Source: an uncultured Candidatus Saccharibacteria bacterium (GTDB lineage Bacteria > Patescibacteriota > Minisyncoccia > Phycocordibacterales > Phycocordibacteraceae). From it: DNA of 23,078 nt. Position numbers and translations under genes: made by a program. The notes beneath the pieces were generated by a model. It searched no databases. It worked only from the letters and a program-made list of their open reading frames with translations, and had not been told where the DNA came from. The DNA lies in contig CAZHSZ010000012.1 of assembly GCA_964535425.1 (NCBI GenBank), positions 1 through 23,078 of the forward strand. The letters run 5' to 3'. Below are positions 607-11,120 of the stretch, one piece after another (positions within the stretch are counted from its first letter, which is position 1; the number at the start of each line of letters is the position of its first letter).

Positions 607-639
607 GCACCAACAAATACAAGAACTTCAAACTTTTAG

Positions 640-724
640 CGGAGGAGGTGAGATTCGAACTCACGGTACCTTGCGGTACTCTTGTTTTCAAGACAAGTGC
701 GATAGACCACTCTGCCACTCCTCC
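640..724 (-). tRNA. tRNA-Ser (anticodon UGA), long variable arm, no encoded CCA
   Basis: The minus strand reads GGAGGAG...CTTGT-CTTGAAA-ACAAG...GTGAG-TTCGAAT-CTCAC-CTCCTCC-G. It folds as a cloverleaf with a 17-nt variable arm. Confidence 0.9.
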
Positions 725-730
725 TTACGT

Positions 731-1108
731 CTAGCCTAAAACCTTCTCAATTCTGTCTCTGTCCTGAGGCGTAATGGTACTTCTGTTTGATAAGTCGTCT
801 CGGATTAGGAACTCTTTTCCGTCTTGACCAAGAACATACAACCAATCAAAAGCATTTTTCTTTATTTTCTTCACCACGTATCCTTTCGAATTAGAGTGAA
901 TACGTCTTAACCCCACCTCTTTGCCAGAACAGAACCTAACCTGCACTCTATACAATTTTTGTCCTCTGTCCACTGCAATATCGTATGCTGCCGACTCAGT
1001 GAGGGGGAAAAGCACATCCATTCCTAGTCTTGTAAAAGTTGCGATTGCCTGAGCAACCGCGAAATCTCCTTTCTTCTGCGTTGCTCTGTGTTGGTTTGGT
1101 CGCTCCAT
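731..1108 (-). CDS. PD-(D/E)XK endonuclease-like protein, resembling the family that contains the group I intron endonuclease I-Ssp6803I
   Basis: 125 aa from the internal ATG at 1108. The motif GDFAVAQAIATFTRLGMDVLFPLTESAAYDIAVDRGQKLYRVQVRF matches the G..aE...G..V..P....YD(l/i)..d....rVQVK pattern as I recall it. A perfect TATAAT lies 6 nt upstream of ATG 1108. GC is about 40% by hand count. Confidence 0.55.
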   Translation of the reverse strand: MERPNQHRATQKKGDFAVAQAIATFTRLGMDVLFPLTESAAYDIAVDRGQKLYRVQVRFCSGKEVGLRRIHSNSKGYVVKKIKKNAFDWLYVLGQDGKEFLIRDDLSNRSTITPQDRDRIEKVLG

Positions 1109-1114
1109 ACGTTT

Positions 1115-1120
1115 ATTATA
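1115..1120 (-). promoter_or_regulatory. -10 box TATAAT, 6-nt spacer to ATG at 1108
   Basis: The reverse complement of attata at 1115-1120 is TATAAT. Confidence 0.45.
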
Positions 1121-1175
1121 ACAGTAGGGGCAACAGGGAATGGTACTTAATGTGGAAACAAAGCCACTTCGCTTC

Positions 1176-1529
1176 CTACGATGCACTTTTATCCTTAGAA
1201 GATTCTTCGTACGCTAGAGGATTTTTCATATCTTTCAAGAAAGGGTACAGCTCATCCGGACCCACCTTGTTATTGTCCTTGCGGAACCAGGCGAGGTAGA
1301 TGATTTCAAGGACGCCTACCGTGTTCACGAGGAGGAGCGCAATCATCCAGAGACGCTGCTTGTTTCGCGCCGCATGCCACACGGCAAGCGTCTTCCAGGC
1401 AAGCGACCAGACCGCGATGACGATGAACAGGACCGCAATCAGCACGGTACCGAACCCGAATGCGCTGCCGGAAGCGCCGAGAAAGAGGTTATCCGAGAAA
1501 GGGGTCCACATATAAAGGGAGAATACCAT
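1176..1529 (-). CDS. small membrane protein, DUF5652-like
   Basis: 117-aa ORF containing WKTLAVWHAARNKQRLWMIALLLVNTVGVLEIIYLAWF, which resembles the DUF5652 signature common in CPR genomes. The start is uncertain: ATG 1529, or ATG 1511 preceded by TATTCT. Confidence 0.6.
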   Translation of the reverse strand: MVFSLYMWTPFSDNLFLGASGSAFGFGTVLIAVLFIVIAVWSLAWKTLAVWHAARNKQRLWMIALLLVNTVGVLEIIYLAWFRKDNNKVGPDELYPFLKDMKNPLAYEESSKDKSAS

Positions 1530-1988: not shown

Positions 1989-2329
1989 TTTCCATCGATG
2001 AGTTTAGCAAGATAGAAGTGCGGGTAGGTACCGTTATAAGTGCTGAGCGCGTACCGGAGACCGACAAGCTTCTCAAGTGCATCGTTGATTTCGGTGAAGT
2101 CGATGCCGAAGGAGTAGCGAAACCCCGCACGATTGTGTCCGGTATTGCGGCTTACGTGGAAGATCCCGGTACGCTTGTCGGGCGCCAGCTTGCGTACGTG
2201 ACCAATCTCGAACCGAGAACCATAAAGGGTATCGAGTCGAACGGCATGCTCTTTGCAGTGGGCGAGGGCGAGACGTTCGCATTCCTTACTCCGGACCGGC
2301 CGGTTCCTCCCGGTACGAGCGCCCACTAA
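1985..2329 (+). CDS. tRNA-binding domain protein, CsaA / EMAP-II-like OB fold
   Basis: 114 aa with FSKIEVRVGTVISAERVPETDKLLKCIVDFGE, typical of the tRNA-binding domain. It overlaps ruvX by ATGA. Confidence 0.8.
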   Translation: MISIDEFSKIEVRVGTVISAERVPETDKLLKCIVDFGEVDAEGVAKPRTIVSGIAAYVEDPGTLVGRQLAYVTNLEPRTIKGIESNGMLFAVGEGETFAFLTPDRPVPPGTSAH

Positions 2330-2362
2330 CAGTTTTTGCACACGTCGCGCCTCGCAAGGCGC

Positions 2363-2368
2363 TATACT
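2363..2368 (+). promoter_or_regulatory. -10 box TATACT, 7-nt spacer to pilM ATG at 2376
   Basis: The sequence reads gcTATACTtatccgtATG, with no SD. Confidence 0.45.
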
Positions 2369-2375
2369 TATCCGT

Positions 2376-3458
2376 ATGAACGCTCTTTCGCGCTTTCTGC
2401 GCGTTGAACTGCCGCCTCCTTCCTATATCGCGCTTAGCACGGTCGGTATCGACATCTCCACGAGCGGCATCAAGATAGCGCGGCTTGCTGAAAAGTCTGC
2501 GGGCCTTGAGCTTGCCGACTACGGCGAGTACCCGCTTCCTGCGGGAACGGTGGTTGGAGGAGAGATACGCGATGCCGCCGCGGTGGTTGAAGGACTCAAG
2601 GCTCTTTCGAAAAAGCACCACATAAAGATAGCCAACTTCGGTTTGCCGGAGTCCCGCGGATACTTGTTTGAAGCGGAAGTTCCCGAGGGAACGCTCGACG
2701 ATGCCAAGGTTGCCGTAGAGCGCCGCCTCGACGAGTACGTGCCGCTTCCTGCCGCTGAAGTCGCGTTTGCCGTAGCACGTCTTCCGAAAACGGGGGAGAA
2801 GTCGCGTGTCGTGGGTGCAGGATACTCGCACCGGGTGCTCGACGAATCGCTCCAGGCGCTCGACGAAGCAGGCATCGTCACGCGCGCGATTGAAAGCGAG
2901 ACGTTTGCGCTCCCGCGCGCGCTCCTTAGGAGTGGGGAAGAGGAGACGGTACTCATCATCGACATCGGCAAGACTACGACCAAGCTCCTGGTCGCCACAA
3001 ACCGTCTTCCGCGCTACGTGACGACGCTTGATATCGGCGGCCATGCGCTCACCCTCGCGGTCGCAAAGCACTTCGGCGTCACCGAAGAGGAGGCGAAGCG
3101 GGTAAAGGCGGAGCGCGGCATTGTTGCCGGAAGCGGAAACGAAGAGTATCTCGCGACCATGCTTTCCACGGTGTCCGTTATCCGCGAGGAAATCGCGAAG
3201 CGCCTCGAGTATTGGCAATCGCGCAAGGAAGAAGGGGAGACGCATGACGCCGTTACGCGCGCGATACTCGTAGGCGGGAACGCGACCGTGCTCGGCCTTC
3301 CCGAATACCTGCAGACGGCGCTCAAGGTGCCGGTCGAGCTTGGCGACGTGTTTGCGAACTTCGCCTCGCGCGATGCGTGGCTGCCACCGCTTGAGTACAC
3401 GGAGTCGCTCGCGTATGGGACTGCGATTGGCCTTGCGCTACGAGAATATGTCGTCTGA
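2376..3458 (+). CDS. pilM: type IV pilus assembly protein PilM, actin-like ATPase fold
   Basis: 360 aa with an N-terminal VGIDISTSGIKIARL phosphate-binding-like motif and an FtsA/PilM-like layout. It is followed by a PilN-like gene carrying the NLLP motif. Confidence 0.8.
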   Translation: MNALSRFLRVELPPPSYIALSTVGIDISTSGIKIARLAEKSAGLELADYGEYPLPAGTVVGGEIRDAAAVVEGLKALSKKHHIKIANFGLPESRGYLFEAEVPEGTLDDAKVAVERRLDEYVPLPAAEVAFAVARLPKTGEKSRVVGAGYSHRVLDESLQALDEAGIVTRAIESETFALPRALLRSGEEETVLIIDIGKTTTKLLVATNRLPRYVTTLDIGGHALTLAVAKHFGVTEEEAKRVKAERGIVAGSGNEEYLATMLSTVSVIREEIAKRLEYWQSRKEEGETHDAVTRAILVGGNATVLGLPEYLQTALKVPVELGDVFANFASRDAWLPPLEYTESLAYGTAIGLALREYVV

Positions 3459-4002
3459 ACTTACGAATCTTTTGCCGAATGAGCGGATACGCGCCTTCAG
3501 GCGTGACTACTTCTTCAGACTCTTTACGGTTGTCGCGCTCGTCGTGGCCGTGGCTATCGGCGTGCACGGGGCGCTGCTTGCGCCCTCGTATCTCTATTTG
3601 CATCAAACGGTTTCGCTCGACCGCCTACGCCTGAGCGAACTCTCGGATACGCTTGCCGCCTCAGAAGAGGCCGAGATGCAGGCGCGACTGACCCGCCTTA
3701 AGAGTGATTCTGAGCGTCTGCTCGCGCTCTCCTCCTCGCCCTCGGCTACCAAGGTCATCCGCGCGCTTCTTGAGGTGCCGCATGCGGGGATTATCGTCAC
3801 CGCAATCTCATTCAAGTCCCCGTCTCCGGACGGTCGCCTTACCATTACCGGGATGGCAAAAACCCGCGAGTCGCTCCGCCAATACCATCTCGCGCTCTCT
3901 TCGCTTACGTTTGCGAAAAGCGCGGAACTTCCGCTCTCGGCCTACGCGAAGGAAAGCGATATTCCGTTTACCATTACGCTTACGGGCCCGCTCACGCCAT
4001 GA
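3448..4002 (+). CDS. pilN: PilN-like pilus assembly protein
   Basis: 184 aa. The N-terminus LTNLLPNERIRAF matches the conserved PilN INLLP motif that binds PilM and is followed by a single TM helix. It overlaps the pilM stop by 11 nt. Confidence 0.6.
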   Translation: MSSELTNLLPNERIRAFRRDYFFRLFTVVALVVAVAIGVHGALLAPSYLYLHQTVSLDRLRLSELSDTLAASEEAEMQARLTRLKSDSERLLALSSSPSATKVIRALLEVPHAGIIVTAISFKSPSPDGRLTITGMAKTRESLRQYHLALSSLTFAKSAELPLSAYAKESDIPFTITLTGPLTP

Positions 4003-4514
4003 AAAAAGGACCCGCACTTACGCTGATACTTTCAATACTCGTCGCGCTCGGAGCGCTTGGCGGCTACCTGTTCTGGTATTACCTGATGCAGGGATTGCGT
4101 GCCGAAAGCGCGCAGCTTGAAGCCGATATCCTCGCGAAAGAAGGGGAGCGCGGCCGCGCGGCATCAGCGCGCACCTCTGAGGACGACCTGCTCGCGCAAG
4201 AGAACTTCATCGCGTCCCACTTGGTGAAGACGGCCGACATCGTGTTGTTCCTTGAAAGAATCGAAGGCACCGGCAAGGCGTTTGGCGCTACCGTGCAGGT
4301 AGCCTCCCTGTCGGGTGAGGGGAAGACCTCGAACGGAAAAATATCCCTCTCACTTTCAATTACGGGAACGTTCGACGCCGTTATGCGCACGCTAGGCTCC
4401 ATAGAGAACGGACCGTATGCGAACATGGTGAGCGACCTCACGCTCGACACGCCGGACAAAGGCCAGACGTGGAGCGCTACCGGAGTGTTCGTAGTCGGAA
4501 CGGAACTGAAATAA
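3999..4514 (+). CDS. PilO-like pilus assembly protein
   Basis: 171 aa with an N-terminal TM helix, a coiled-coil segment and a C-terminal domain. It has an ATGA overlap with pilN. The call rests on position and architecture, not on strong motifs. Confidence 0.5.
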   Translation: MKKGPALTLILSILVALGALGGYLFWYYLMQGLRAESAQLEADILAKEGERGRAASARTSEDDLLAQENFIASHLVKTADIVLFLERIEGTGKAFGATVQVASLSGEGKTSNGKISLSLSITGTFDAVMRTLGSIENGPYANMVSDLTLDTPDKGQTWSATGVFVVGTELK

Positions 4515-4515
4515 T

Positions 4516-4827
4516 ATGGACCCGCTCAAAAAAATCACCGCATCGCTCCAAAGCTTCCTGAAACCGCAGGGAACGAAGCGGCTGAACCCGGCGCGCGACT
4601 GGATGTTCGTGCTTGCTTGCGGCCTCGCGCTTATCCTTGCGAGTATGCTCTGGAACGCATGGTTCTTTTTTGCGGTCCTCACTGAGGATAAAACCATACA
4701 GACGCCTGCGGCTCCCCAGGAAGTGGATGCAAGCTCATTCCAAAAGGCGCAAGAGCTCTTTCAGAAGAGGGAAGCTGAAGAGGCACGGTATAAAACGGAA
4801 TACCGCTTTGTTGACCCATCGCATTAA
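4516..4827 (+). CDS. small single-TM protein, fourth gene of the pil operon
   Basis: 103-aa ORF starting 1 nt after the PilO stop, with the TM segment WMFVLACGLALILASMLWNAWFFFAVL. Confidence 0.5.
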   Translation: MDPLKKITASLQSFLKPQGTKRLNPARDWMFVLACGLALILASMLWNAWFFFAVLTEDKTIQTPAAPQEVDASSFQKAQELFQKREAEEARYKTEYRFVDPSH

Positions 4828-4845
4828 GCTCGTAAGAACGAGCTT
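4826..4845 (+). terminator. weak hairpin at the end of the pil operon
   Basis: The hairpin aagctcgt-aaga-acgagctt has an 8-bp stem overlapping the stop codon. There is no T tail. Confidence 0.3.
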
Positions 4846-4919
4846 GCTACCTGCGTTCGCTCGAATACCTATCTGAAGCAGATATGTATTTCTCACTCAC
4901 TTGGTAGTAAGGTATTTGG

Positions 4920-4991
4920 GCCTCCATAGCTCAATGGATAGAGCTGCGGACTTCTAAGCCGTCGATCTTGGTTCGATTCCAGGTGGAGGCA
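4920..4991 (+). tRNA. tRNA-Arg (anticodon UCU)
   Basis: Acceptor gcctcca/tggaggc, anticodon loop cTTCTaa and T arm cttgg-ttcgatt-ccagg. One mismatch closes the anticodon stem. Confidence 0.85.
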
Positions 4992-5004: not shown

Positions 5005-5089
5005 GGGCATGTGGCGGAACTGGTATACGCTGTCGTCTCAGAAGCGGCTGGAGCAATCCATGGGAGTTCGACTCTCCCCATGCCCACCA
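5005..5089 (+). tRNA. tRNA-Leu (anticodon CAG) with encoded CCA
   Basis: Acceptor gggcatg/catgccc, anticodon loop ctCAGaa, long variable arm and T arm gggag-ttcgact-ctccc. The 3' end reads a-CCA. Confidence 0.9.
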
Positions 5090-5094
5090 CCAAA

Positions 5095-5126
5095 GCAAGC
5101 ACCTCCGGAACATCGGAGGTGCTTGC
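5095..5126. terminator. bidirectional hairpin terminator between tRNA-Leu(CAG) and the convergent 81-aa gene
   Basis: The hairpin gcaagcacctccg-gaacat-cggaggtgcttgc has a perfect 13-bp stem. Confidence 0.7.
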
Positions 5127-5148: not shown

Positions 5149-5394
5149 TCAAGTGGACCCCTCCATTTCTTTTTCGAGGAGCTCGAGCTGCTCCTCGTAT
5201 CCTGTAAGAGACTCAAGCTCCTTCCGCAGATTCCCTCCTATGCGGTCGAAAAGGGCATACAGTGAAACGTAGTCGTTCTCGGAAAGTTCTTCTTCCGGGC
5301 TTTTTGCGCGCAAAGCGGCTACTTCCGGCTCGTCCAAAAGGCTCCGGTAGTCGGCGTCGGCATCGAGTCGATTCGTTAATTCCCGTACGGTCAT
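5149..5394 (-). CDS. small acidic hypothetical protein (81 aa)
   Basis: The ORF is coupled by an ATGA overlap to the upstream 417-aa gene. It is Glu/Asp/Leu-rich and I recognise no motif. Confidence 0.5.
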   Translation of the reverse strand: MTVRELTNRLDADADYRSLLDEPEVAALRAKSPEEELSENDYVSLYALFDRIGGNLRKELESLTGYEEQLELLEKEMEGST

Positions 5395-9841: not shown

Positions 9842-9878
9842 AGCCGGCCCGCTATAGTAGGCGGGCCGGCTTTGTTTT
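9842..9878 (+). terminator. intrinsic terminator after rplS
   Basis: The hairpin agccggcccgc-tatagtag-gcgggccggct has an 11-bp stem and is followed by ttgtttt. Confidence 0.8.
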
Positions 9879-9893
9879 AAAGCCTATGCACCT

Positions 9894-9975
9894 GCCCAGG
9901 TGTTGAAATTGGTATACAAGCTACCTTGAGGTGGTAGTGCCGAAAGGCGTGGAGGTTCGAGTCCTCTCCTGGGCA
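9894..9975 (+). tRNA. tRNA-Leu (anticodon GAG)
   Basis: Acceptor gcccagg/cctgggc, anticodon arm ctacc-ttGAGgt-ggtag, long variable arm and T arm ggagg-ttcgagt-cctct. Confidence 0.9.
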
Positions 9976-9980
9976 CACAT

Positions 9981-10020
9981 AAAAAGAATGTCCGACGCGG
10001 GAGCGTCGGCTTTCTTTTTT
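9981..10020. terminator. bidirectional terminator after tRNA-Leu(GAG)
   Basis: The sequence aaaaaga...ccgacgc-ggga-gcgtcgg-c-tttctttttt has an A tract upstream and a T tract downstream of the hairpin. Confidence 0.7.
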
Positions 10021-10147
10021 GTGGCACCAGGAGAGGACTCGAAAGCGAGTGCGTAGACCGGTTCAGCAGAACCGGTAGCGCGAGCAGGGCCGAGAAATTT
10101 CTGCGAGCGACGGCGAGCAGAAATGTTCTTGGCCGAGCCTCTCCAGG
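10021..10147. repeat. tRNA-3'-end-mimic structured element, copy A
   Basis: 10027-10043 is the exact reverse complement of tRNA-Leu 9956-9972. There are internal hairpins at 10037-10050, 10057-10076 and 10097-10124. The closing arm 10138-10147 pairs with 10027-10036. Conserved blocks are shared with copy B. Confidence 0.7.
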
Positions 10148-10191
10148 ACACTTTTCTCGCTATACACATCCCCAAACTCCTCCTTCTGCAC

Positions 10192-10197
10192 TACAAT
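10192..10197 (+). promoter_or_regulatory. -10 box TACAAT, 6-nt spacer to ATG at 10204
   Basis: The sequence reads cTACAATaaaaaaATG. Confidence 0.4.
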
Positions 10198-10203
10198 AAA
10201 AAA

Positions 10204-10395
10204 ATGAAACAGCGCCTCCTCAAAGCTCTTGAAGTTTCGCTTGAGTGGCGCATCATCGCGTTCGTCATTACGGAACTTTTCCTCTGGGCTACCACCGGCG
10301 AGCTCTGGCACGCGACGATGCTTGCGGTGGGCCTGCAGGCGGTATTGTTCATCGCGTACTTCGGCTGGTACTTCGTTCGCGAGACGCATCCGTAG
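10204..10395 (+). CDS. small membrane protein, DUF2061-like
   Basis: 63 aa. The sequence LEWRIIAFVITELFLWATTGELWHATMLAVGLQAVLFIAYFGWYFVRE resembles the DUF2061 pattern (tWR...TG...YY.hER). Confidence 0.55.
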   Translation: MKQRLLKALEVSLEWRIIAFVITELFLWATTGELWHATMLAVGLQAVLFIAYFGWYFVRETHP

Positions 10396-10460
10396 GGAAG
10401 CGTCCTTTCTAAGGTTCAATTCGCGTGGTATAAGTGCGACACAGTGCTTCGTGCGCGCAT

Positions 10461-10534
10461 GGCGGCTTTAGCTCAGCTGGTAGAGCACCTGGTTGTGGTC
10501 CAGGCGGTCGTGGGTTCGAGCCCCACAAGTCGCC
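10461..10534 (+). tRNA. tRNA-His (anticodon GUG) with genomically encoded G-1
   Basis: G-1 precedes acceptor gcggctt/aagtcgc and the discriminator is C. The anticodon arm is cctgg-ttGTGgt-ccagg and the T arm is gtggg-ttcgagc-cccac. Confidence 0.9.
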
Positions 10535-10541
10535 CAGAAAT

Positions 10542-10578
10542 AAAAACCGGATGAGGAGCATCCGGTTTTTCTATTTTT
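10542..10578. terminator. bidirectional terminator after tRNA-His
   Basis: The hairpin aaaaaccggatg-aggag-catccggttttt has a 12-bp stem and is followed by ctattttt. Confidence 0.8.
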
Positions 10579-10706
10579 GCGGACGACTTGTGGGGCTCGA
10601 AGGCGAGCGCGGGCACCTTTCCAGCAGGGAAGGTCGCGCGAGCAGGGCCGAGCGGAGCTAGGAGCGACGGCGACGAAGCGAGCGCTTGGCCGTGCCCACA
10701 AGCCCC
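10579..10706. repeat. tRNA-3'-end-mimic structured element, copy B
   Basis: 10584-10601 is the exact reverse complement of tRNA-His 10515-10532. There are hairpins at 10595-10608 and 10615-10634. The blocks GCGCGAGCAGGGCCGAG, GAGCGACGGCGA and TTGGCCG are identical to copy A at a constant offset. The arm 10695-10702 pairs with 10587-10594. Confidence 0.7.
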
Positions 10707-10716
10707 GTATTTCTGC

Positions 10717-10722
10717 TACACT
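10717..10722 (+). promoter_or_regulatory. -10-like box TACACT, 8-nt spacer to mscL ATG at 10731
   Basis: The sequence reads gcTACACTctcctcgtATG. Confidence 0.4.
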
Positions 10723-10730
10723 CTCCTCGT

Positions 10731-11120
10731 ATGAAACTCATCGAAGAATTCAAAGCGTTCGCGATGCGCGGCAACGTCATCGACCTCGCTTTCGCAGTCA
10801 TTATCGGCACCGCGTTCGGCAAGATAGTCTCCTCGCTCGTCGAGGACATCATCATGCCGCCCATCGGCTTCCTTATCGGCGGCATAAACTTCTCCGACCT
10901 TGCGATATCGCTTGAGACGGGAATCGGTGCGCCGGTACTCATAAAGTACGGCGTTTTCATCCAGGCGCTGTTTGATTTCCTTATCGTTGCGTTCGTGCTC
11001 TTTATGGCGCTCCGCCTCCTGAACAAGCTTCAGAAACCGAAGGAGGCTCCGGTAGAGGCTCCGAAGAAGAGCGAAGAACTCCTCGTGCTTGAGCAGATTC
11101 GCGATTCCCTTAAAAAGTAA
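10731..11120 (+). CDS. mscL: large-conductance mechanosensitive channel
   Basis: 129 aa. [40 protein letters not shown] is the canonical MscL N-terminus. Confidence 0.9.

Follow-up and report, generated by a model that had tools for sequence, protein, structure and literature searches.

A family of structured tRNA-trailer cassettes in Patescibacteria, built like the RtT repeats of Escherichia coli

In Escherichia coli, one repeat unit of the tyrT operon is reported to encode rttR (PMC3318445), which is described as involved in processing of the tyrT transcript and possibly in the stringent response (bioRxiv 10.1101/2024.07.17.603846). These RtT repeats, with rttR, are the only architectural precedent that we found for the element described here, which lies in a 23,078-nucleotide (nt) stretch of DNA from an uncultured Candidatus Saccharibacteria bacterium (GenBank assembly GCA_964535425.1, contig CAZHSZ010000012.1, positions 1 to 23,078 of the forward strand; hereafter, the window). 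One copy follows a tRNA-Leu gene (copy A) and another, of about 130 bases (10576–10707), lies 3' of tRNA-His (copy B). We conclude that the element belongs to an uncatalogued, superphylum-wide, multi-tRNA cassette family of RtT-type tRNA-trailer RNAs with a conserved core of its own. The explanation that we favour, at a probability of roughly 0.55, is that of an RtT-like structured RNA cassette in the tRNA trailer that spreads by recombination through its tRNA-derived arms.

The E. coli K-12 tyrT-tyrV-rttR region (NC_000913.3 1286000–1288200; comparison locus L108) contains four 178-nt units, with RtT units at the following positions.

L108 711–842, 889–1020, 1067–1198 and 1364–1495, minus strand: RtT units, inverted repeats, Rfam RF00391 at 133–138 bits

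Each unit opens with a spacer, which is followed by an antisense copy of the tRNA-Tyr T-arm (22 nt, 86%), by hairpins in its interior and by a direct copy of the 3' end of the tRNA (19 nt); rttR is annotated to end exactly on the CCA of this tRNA-like 3' end. The Patescibacteria units likewise begin directly 3' of a tRNA gene and end in a direct copy of the tRNA 3' end. In both systems the closing helix is formed from the antisense and sense copies (the inverted repeats and Rfam consensus in E. coli, helix 1 in the new family), and in both the units stand in tandem arrays downstream of the tRNA. Words shared by the two, with marginal significance, include CGAAAGCGAG, an (A)GCAG-capped hairpin and GAGGAGCGA..GCGACGAA. 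RtT is, however, restricted to tRNA-Tyr in enterobacteria and includes an encoded CCA, whereas the Patescibacteria family has its own four-way-junction core in at least three subfamilies, is found at 20 tRNA species, has no CCA and undergoes cassette exchange.

Other described systems resemble the element in part. 3'ETS-leuZ is a short RNA that is cut from a tRNA precursor and acts as a small RNA (sRNA) sponge; here too the RNA would belong to the 3' external spacer of tRNA transcripts, most of them of tRNA-Leu, and would be released by tRNA processing, but 3'ETS-leuZ has no tRNA-derived arms, repeat family or mobility. Specificity for one tRNA is a trait of T-box RNAs, and the 18-nt complement of the tRNA 3' part recalls a retroviral primer-binding site. 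T-boxes, however, pair with the anticodon and NCCA and lie upstream of aminoacyl-tRNA synthetase genes, whereas the element, which is found downstream of the tRNA and has no Rfam T-box match, complements tRNA positions 54–73 and neither the anticodon nor CCA. A primer-binding site includes the CCA and requires a reverse transcriptase; in the element the complement runs into the trailer and is broken at 71–73, and the window holds no reverse transcriptase. Like MITEs (small transposable elements with inverted repeats) and the REP, Correia and RPE sequences, the units are small, lack open reading frames (ORFs), occur in many copies, form hairpins and are flanked by duplications. Their arms, however, are copied from each target and not conserved between copies, the conserved part is an internal structured core, and the flanking duplication varies from 9 to more than 20 nt, unlike the short fixed duplication of MITEs.

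Two collinear copies in the window

An earlier note on this DNA had described two collinear copies of one element, and this description was borne out in all its positions. Two comparison loci recur below: L047, from a Candidatus Paceibacterota metagenome-assembled genome (MAG) that is the closest named relative of the window (86% identity), and L083, from a distant relative with the same gene order. The parts of the two loci are as follows.

10462–10535, plus strand: tRNA-His(GTG) (ARAGORN; Rfam tRNA, 64.6 bits); the part from T-loop to 3' end (10515–10534) is the source of both copy B arms
10536–10575, plus strand: spacer of unit B, with the trailer, a terminator-like hairpin (stem 10542–10570) and a T-tract (terminator scan; inverted repeat); it forms the tip of a long palindrome
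10576–10601, plus strand: left arm (antisense) of copy B, with T-loop, T-stem 3' strand, acceptor 3' strand and trailer of tRNA-His in reverse complement, ending at the complement of T54 (inverted repeat of 26 nt at 88%; alignment; per-position profile)
10595–10608, plus strand: P1 of copy B (GCTCG AAGG CGAGC), a small hairpin whose 5' strand is the T-loop complement (fold)
10609–10639, plus strand: P2 of copy B, a bipartite hairpin with an AGCA loop (fold; compensatory changes in the family)
10640–10692, plus strand: J2/3 (GAGCAG) and P3 of copy B; the base of P3 (GGCCGAG/CTTGGCC) includes a conserved G.U pair, and the distal stem is capped by GAGCGACGGCGA (invariant columns; conserved G.U; compensation in L083)
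10693–10707, plus strand: right arm (direct) of copy B, in which the 3' end of tRNA-His is copied in decayed form (CCCACAAG, a 3-nt deletion, then CCC; 10/12 matches)
10586–10702, plus strand: match of copy B to the family covariance model (114.6 bits, E 2e-26)
9894–9976, plus strand: tRNA-Leu(GAG), the anchor of copy A (ARAGORN; Rfam tRNA, 49 bits in an E-value scan)
9977–10014, plus strand: spacer hairpin of unit A, with a bidirectional terminator-like stem at 9992–10009 (terminator scan; 38/38 positions as in L047)
10015–10151, plus strand: whole of copy A (inverted repeat of 29 nt at 86%; fold; covariance model, 113.7 bits at 10029–10144)
10015–10043, 10037–10050, 10051–10081, 10088–10134 and 10138–10151, plus strand: antisense arm, P1, P2, P3 and direct arm of copy A

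In copy B, 10584–10601 is the exact reverse complement of tRNA-His 10515–10532, within an inverted repeat that reaches 26 nt at 88% (10515–10540 with 10576–10601), and the distal segment 10695–10702 (cccacaag) pairs with 10587–10594. The two copies have in common a 17-mer (at 10078 in A and 10636 in B), a 12-mer (10105 and 10662) and CTTGGCCG (10128 and 10685). P1 of copy B lies at 10595–10608, as had been proposed, and its P2 pairs 10615–10622 with 10627–10634 around the AGCA loop, including a T10620–G10629 wobble; the P2 stems differ between the copies. The family covariance model found copies A and B at about 114 bits each and no further copies in the window, two of whose six tRNAs are thus followed by the element. 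Downstream of the direct arm of copy B, homology with L047 restarts only at 10714. Copy B is old: it is present in L083, lost from L047 and intact in close strains, and its direct arm has already decayed.

At gathering scores Rfam 15 matched only tRNAs in the window, and E-value scans of 9850–10760, of 10570–10715 and of L021 2825–2985 returned only chance matches to microRNAs and sRNAs; a known RNA family was therefore rejected at both kinds of threshold. ARAGORN and Rfam made no tRNA, tmRNA or tRNA-like call over 10576–10712 or 10015–10155 on either strand. Protein coding was rejected as well, as the only ORFs were spurious overlapping ones and the covariation follows the pattern of RNA helices. 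Literature searched by topic and by sequence words gave nothing on the element, and only the RtT work surfaced.

A family tied to tRNA genes, and its core

A pattern of two conserved blocks was scanned over 185,579 species genomes, and metagenomes were scanned in addition. The genome scan yielded about 30 true copies, all in Patescibacteria (Saccharibacteria, Paceibacterota and Kaiser-, Adler-, Nomura- and Komeilibacteria), the other matches being chance ones in GC-rich genomes; the metagenome scan added 33 loci. No copies were found in viral, phage and plasmid collections, and a phage or plasmid origin was rejected on these zero matches. With a covariance model built from 30 copies, weaker and diverged copies were also detected in other loci, and the superfamily comprises at least 67 distinct copies, all from genomes or metagenomes of Patescibacteria (Candidate Phyla Radiation, CPR). 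The conserved blocks do form a repeat family; but this family is structured, and it is absent from the libraries searched.

A tRNA on the same strand lies upstream of 48 of the 67 copies (within 120 nt, at gaps of 27–76 nt, mostly 48–54 nt). The remaining copies stand behind another unit of an array (5), lie at the edge of a locus that lacks upstream sequence (6) or are orphans (8). Twenty tRNA species carry the element, Leu isoacceptors most frequently. The unit measures roughly 170–200 nt (about 190) and is ORF-less, and its cores fall into three or more subfamilies. In the syntenic region of L083 (200–4430), each of the five tRNAs (Arg-tct, Leu-cag, Val-tac, Leu-gag and His) carries one or two units, unlike in the window, where Arg-tct, Leu-cag and Val-tac are without them.

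This linkage bears on the idea that the copies are 5' leaders, or riboswitch-like regulators, of mscL and of a DUF2061-like gene, an idea that is close to refuted. Both window copies do lie 28–55 nt upstream of small membrane-protein ORFs and their RNA is predicted to be highly structured, yet the constant neighbour across the family is the upstream tRNA, while downstream there are other tRNAs, units, terminators and unrelated genes, and L047 has the same mscL and -10 region in its sequence without the element. The position upstream of the two genes, which the earlier note had pointed out, is therefore incidental: the link of the family is to the tRNA ahead of it, and the genes behind it vary.

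In both copies a GC-rich stretch follows the inverted copy of the tRNA 3' part, and both fold as a four-way junction of the arm helix P0 with P1, P2 and P3. The plus strand folds better than shuffled sequence and than the minus strand in copy B (-74.7 kcal/mol, z -4.8, vs -56.0 kcal/mol, z -1.5) and in copy A (-72.7 kcal/mol, z -7.7, vs -61.3 kcal/mol). In a hand-made alignment of the family 89% of cells pair, against 37–43% in slid controls, with a covariation score of 0.40 against at most 0.13. For the 60 distinct copies aligned by the model the share of paired cells is 91%, compared with 32–46% in slid controls, and the score is 0.44; this alignment, being fitted by the model, favours the structure. 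All 12 pairs of the two P2 helices have double compensatory changes across the family; P1 (helix 2) has weak family support, at 84% paired. Wobble pairs in the core are of the plus-strand type (G.U 55 vs A.C 16), and the single G.U pair of the P3 base is kept in 57 of the 60 copies. The earlier note had taken the core to be conserved with compensatory stem changes and, from one wobble, weakly, the plus strand to be the folded one; the family upholds both. A gene or tRNA-like RNA on the minus strand was rejected on the poorer minus-strand fold, the contrary wobble bias and the absence of an ARAGORN call.

Between the window and L047 coding DNA is 75–88% identical, whereas tRNA, spacer and antisense arm agree at 150/150 positions and the core at 86/92, and five of the six core changes retain the pair through G.U; the right arm and the terminator behind it are variable. 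The copy B ortholog of L083 carries compensatory changes in P2, in the P3 base (GGTCGAG/CTTGACC) and in an apical 2-bp stem (GT/AC). Subfamily 2 follows the same plan with other words: CCGGAGCGATG, a hairpin with an AGCA cap, CCGCGAGGCGGGGTCG.G, another hairpin with the cap GCGACGGC, and CGTGACC; its P3 base is a compensated version of that of the main family. By these comparisons purifying selection acts between relatives on the core, a single-stranded fold of the plus strand; because the core is conserved across classes and changes in a compensatory manner, it is very likely a functional RNA.

The least credible explanation, that the units are non-functional scars, namely decaying attachment (att) remnants or tRNA pseudogene fragments of integrative elements, is contradicted by this covariation and conservation. 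Integration of elements commonly leaves partial tRNA 3' ends beside tRNA genes (PMC9897764), and the right arms of the units do decay; a 90-nt core that is conserved across Patescibacteria classes with strong covariation, purifying selection between relatives and compensatory evolution in orthologous copies are not what scars would leave.

Two further observations concern the variety of cores. A third core subfamily is found in L063 (4535–4802, minus strand) between tRNA-Arg(tct) and tRNA-Val(tac), with the same arm logic and a direct repeat that runs 10 nt into the trailer. A copy in L058 (3447–3584, minus strand) has an AT-rich expansion of about 30 nt at the tip of P2, the apex of which tolerates insertions.

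Arms, arrays and cassette exchange

The order of parts was identical in the 22 tRNA-linked loci that we examined base by base: tRNA, trailer with hairpin (often with a GNRA loop), antisense copy, core and direct copy. The antisense arm carries the trailer, the acceptor 3' strand, the T-stem 3' strand and the T-loop in reverse complement; of 21 aligned loci, 17 have it start at T54 or at the neighbouring G53. The direct arm repeats the tRNA from about C56 or R57 to N73/74, with identity at background beyond position 74. Complementarity of the antisense arm was 76–97% at tRNA positions 61–68 and 70 and 58% at 69, and it collapsed at 71–75, largely via a 1-nt insertion that often yields TTTTGTAG.

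At least 10 of 12 positions fit the own tRNA in 40% of the antisense arms and 54% of the direct arms of 48 tRNA-linked copies, compared with 1.2% and 1.1%, respectively, for non-cognate tRNAs; 19 of the 48 direct arms are perfect copies of the tRNA end, with decay after that state. Judged against the other copies in this way, a chance origin of the match between arm and tRNA is excluded. The tRNAs without an element have no inverted copy of their 3' end, and the inverted copy is therefore part of the element; palindrome growth around terminators as a genome-wide habit was ruled out on the same ground. That the arms follow the local tRNA while the core is conserved, as the earlier note had claimed for the window, thus holds and extends to the family. 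The co-evolution of arm and tRNA that the earlier note had proposed to look for was seen as well: both arms of the copy B ortholog in L083 carry the lineage-specific substitutions of their own tRNA-His (CCCAT for CCCAC, ACG for AAG, and a TTCAAGT T-loop).

Selection on the pairing of the arms, which had been argued from the window copies, was not upheld. The closing helix has no wobble bias (G.U 33 vs A.C 34), departures of the antisense arm from the tRNA complement are met by no compensating change in the direct arm, and the direct arm decays. In L009 and L063 the right arm fits another allele of the same tRNA and not the resident one, and L063 holds a perfect 70-nt palindrome. The arms look like a duplicated insertion flank, that is, DNA copies, and not like pairs held by selection.

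The spacer hairpin is, on comparison of loci, part of the unit, because two classes of it recur behind different tRNAs and because the Arg-Leu(cag) spacer is hairpin-free in the window and filled in L083. Class 1 reads AACAGTTGAG, a hairpin containing GAGCATGTCTC, and CGATTACTGTTTT; class 2 reads CAAAACAAGGAG, a hairpin, and GCGACTATTGTTTTGTAG. In L083 the orthologous spacer retains its hairpin through compensatory stem changes. The classes (e.g., L014 1303–1352, L085, L033 and L041) have an asymmetric internal loop, UUGAG / CGAUU or AAGGAG / GCGACUAU, and are common to different tRNAs and taxa; in the second class a -10-like TATTGT/TATAAT stands just 5' of the antisense arm.

Folding of the read-through RNA with RNAfold (10461–10712 and 9894–10155) paired the antisense arm with the 3' half of its own tRNA in a hairpin of about 40 bp, and the 5' half of the tRNA with the distal copy. 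Such a fold would put the tRNA out of action, unless kinetics prevent it from forming or it is part of the function; the strict conservation of spacer and antisense arm, with the break at 71–73, suggests that it matters. On this rests the idea of a cis-regulator of the upstream tRNA, in which the antisense arm would capture the T-arm and acceptor 3' strand (hairpin H1) and the distal copy would pair with the tRNA 5' half, a strand-exchange switch or processing stalk that sets the amount of mature tRNA or its 3'-end cut. It would fit H1 being the predicted minimum-free-energy fold by 17–20 kcal/mol, the conservation of spacer and antisense arm (67/67, like the tRNA itself, with a drifting right arm), the constant 48–54 nt spacing, the conserved 1-nt insertion and mismatch opposite 71–73, where the tRNA 3' end is formed, and the co-variation of the antisense arm with changes in tRNA-His. 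We nevertheless consider it improbable: a tRNA with its 3' half sequestered would be lost, and cleavage would not release the strands of a 19-bp duplex. The conserved core, the trailer-only arms of some subfamily-2 copies and the orphan copies without a tRNA would be left unexplained, and the element stands at just two of six window tRNAs.

Still less probable, and very unlikely, is an intron-like or self-processing ribozyme in the tRNA T-loop with a spare 3' exon, the core of which would cleave or splice itself and for which the antisense arm would be the guide that aligns the two tRNA-derived segments. Read as an insertion at 55/56, the unit does have exon-like flanking repeats, the joined T-loop and 3' end find a perfect splint in its antisense arm, the four-way junction has conserved unpaired nucleotides and the predicted alternative fold pairs the tRNA 5' half with the distal copy. 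Yet no Rfam ribozyme or intron family matched, the first tRNA copy is already complete, and old copies have decayed right arms, so that splicing cannot be required.

Comparison of related loci revealed how units come and go. Behind tRNA-His of L083 there is a subfamily-2 unit, then the old trailer and hairpin (homologous to those of the window), then the copy B ortholog; the newer unit was placed exactly past the discriminator base, with CCATACGTCGCCC on both flanks. The Arg-Leu(cag) spacer, empty in the window, contains a whole unit in L083. Arrays occur in L033, L009, L053, L054 and L083, some of them combining core subfamilies, and both window copies are single units. In L094, which is 96–99% identical to the window, 5170–5320 (minus strand) corresponds to window 10044–10158 and locus A holds another core subfamily: the tRNA-Leu, hairpin and antisense arm are as in the window up to GGACTCGAA, homology is back at CTATACAC, and the right arm is of the donor type, fitting another tRNA-Leu(gag) allele. 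As aligned, this is a clean cassette swap with its left junction in the T-loop complement. Behind tRNA-Leu(gag) of L079 lies a core that is 92% identical to that of window copy B (behind tRNA-His), in flanking genes that are only about 72–77% identical to those of the window. These alignments show that new units enter directly after the discriminator base beside the tRNA, building arrays; that the direct copy behaves as a duplicated insertion target; and that cores, or cores with right arms, are exchanged by recombination with the left junction in T-loop-derived sequence.

Such insertion resembles that of tRNA-targeting integrative elements with tyrosine-integrase att sites, in which the direct repeats also run from the tRNA T-loop to the 3' end, the tRNA stays intact and the displaced copy retains the original trailer and terminator. 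The unit differs in being only about 190 nt long, in having an extra inverted copy of the target and one core at 20 different tRNAs, and in the absence of an integrase: Pfam scans, which covered the ORFs of the window but not the surroundings of the other copies, found neither integrase nor transposase nor reverse transcriptase.

The main rival explanation fits much of the same data and takes the unit to be a cassette that recombines as folded single-stranded DNA, as integron attC sites and the CTX-phage attP hairpin do. Here it would be the plus strand of the DNA that folds. Made of the tRNA 3' end, the spacer and the antisense arm, the long hairpin would restore the attachment site of the tRNA in double-stranded form, a tyrosine recombinase of the host or of a phage would exchange strands in the T-loop, and the core would be a structure recognised by a protein. 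The likeness to attC and CTX attP lies in the strand-specific fold, the proximal growth of arrays (beside the tRNA here, as cassettes grow beside attI) and a hairpin that can rebuild a duplex attachment site. Direct repeats from T-loop to tRNA end are as in tRNA att sites, the antisense copy stops at T54 or G53, the swap junction falls in the T-loop complement, the arms are without an RNA-type G.U bias, L063 has its perfect palindrome, and a strand-specific DNA fold would tolerate G.T too. We regard this explanation as unlikely all the same. There is no gene for an integrase, a transposase or a reverse transcriptase in the window, attC boxes (R''/L''-L'/R', GTTRRRY core) were not seen on reading the alignments, with no pattern search run, the core is far more conserved than attC sites and is linked to tRNA genes, and phage and plasmid collections yielded no copies. 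In addition, compensatory evolution in situ over long vertical descent suggests a function of the resident copy and not only at insertion.

Several observations touch on locus turnover. In L047 a quite different tRNA-His allele and an HNH-like ORF, without the element, occupy the site of window tRNA-His and copy B, from which a joint foreign import of the latter two had been inferred; this was dropped, and L047 is taken as the lineage that changed, because the more distant L083 has the same tRNA-His type and the orthologous copy B. The L047 ORF (about 4490–4990, minus strand), which adjoins this allele, has a sub-threshold HNH_3 match (E 6e-4, 19.8 bits vs a 24.8-bit cutoff). In the window a PD-(D/E)XK endonuclease gene (731–1186, minus strand; PDDEXK_5, E 2e-15) adjoins tRNA-Ser (639–724, minus strand). 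Free-standing nuclease genes beside tRNA genes may take part in locus turnover. In L077 (2007–2124, minus strand), and also in L088, an inverted orphan unit lies 49 nt past tRNA-Leu(cag), flanked by direct repeats CGGCTCTATTGTCT; its arms in L077 fit the 3' end of tRNA-Val(tac), and no tRNA-Val is present, which looks like a rearrangement between convergent tRNA loci. The unit-free tRNA-Leu(cag) of the window (5005–5095) encodes its CCA end (catgcccACCAcc, from reading of the sequence); the two unit-bearing tRNAs of the window do not encode CCA, and few unit-bearing tRNAs elsewhere have it at 74–76. Window 2253–4514 holds a PilM_2-family gene (2253–3458) followed by two overlapping ORFs, which would fit DNA uptake or competence machinery and so bears on spread by recombination.

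The RtT-like explanation and its meaning

By analogy with RtT/rttR, transcription would start at the tRNA promoter, read through the spacer hairpin and cover the unit, which would be released as a stable RNA. The cut at the tRNA 3' end would make its 5' end, and the same 3'-processing of tRNAs, applied to the tRNA-like right arm, its 3' end. Some units also lie between the tRNAs of one cluster, as in L083 (Arg-E-Leu(cag); E, the element) and in L075 and, identically, L105 (Leu(taa)-E-Lys), and there must be part of a polycistronic precursor, co-transcription being hard to avoid. The tRNA-derived arms would offer homology to any genome with that tRNA, by which, on the assumption that CPR bacteria are naturally competent, units could spread or be swapped through homologous recombination; arm homology, with a left crossover in the tRNA body, would thus explain the observed swaps.

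A number of points weigh against this RtT-like explanation. RF00391 (gathering score 45 bits) gave no match in the window or L021 at E up to 10, and the Patescibacteria model scored the four RtT units at 9–13 bits, on the correct strand and in register. Pairwise local alignments to RtT were marginal (z 2.4–6.6 for one E. coli unit, the others not significant). Sequence homology to RtT was thus not demonstrable, and given the missing RF00391 match and the weak scores the element is not a demonstrable RtT member; the architecture is the same. Both window copies sit behind canonical intrinsic terminators, no sigma-70-like promoter was recognisable ahead of either, and the predicted conformer of about 40 bp lies 17–20 kcal/mol below the separate folds of tRNA, hairpin and element. 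Right arms decay across copies, and the outer acceptor positions 71–73 of the closing helix are systematically mismatched, which weakens the case for tRNA-minihelix mimicry towards processing enzymes. Some subfamily-2 copies have arms taken from the discriminator and trailer only, which counts against any role that requires the tRNA T-arm as such. The G.T-tolerant fold is equally compatible with single-stranded DNA. Finally, an RtT-like cassette gives no account of how the antisense arm originates at a new tRNA.

A more far-reaching idea, which we hold to be rather unlikely, is that of an ORF-less mobile RNA-gene cassette of a new kind, with the 3' end of tRNA genes as its target. Each insertion may rebuild the inverted and direct arms from this target, for instance through copying by fold-back at the terminal hairpin of the unit; the three-way competition among the tRNA 3' half, the antisense copy and the distal copy would act as a functional strand-exchange switch in tRNA maturation, and RtT would be the lone degenerate relative of a superfamily both large and ancient.

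Patescibacteria genomes are very small, yet some lineages retain at least one unit of about 190 nt behind many tRNA genes, and in L083 five of five tRNAs in a 5-kb stretch are unit-bearing. The arms are partial tRNA copies and form long palindromes, and can therefore mislead the prediction of tRNAs, terminators and att sites in MAGs. The family points to a simple route by which a non-coding cassette may move between genomes, carrying a universally conserved gene end as its recombination arms. It also provides a large comparative context for the E. coli RtT repeats, unexplained for 40 years, and makes the function and origin of RtT testable.

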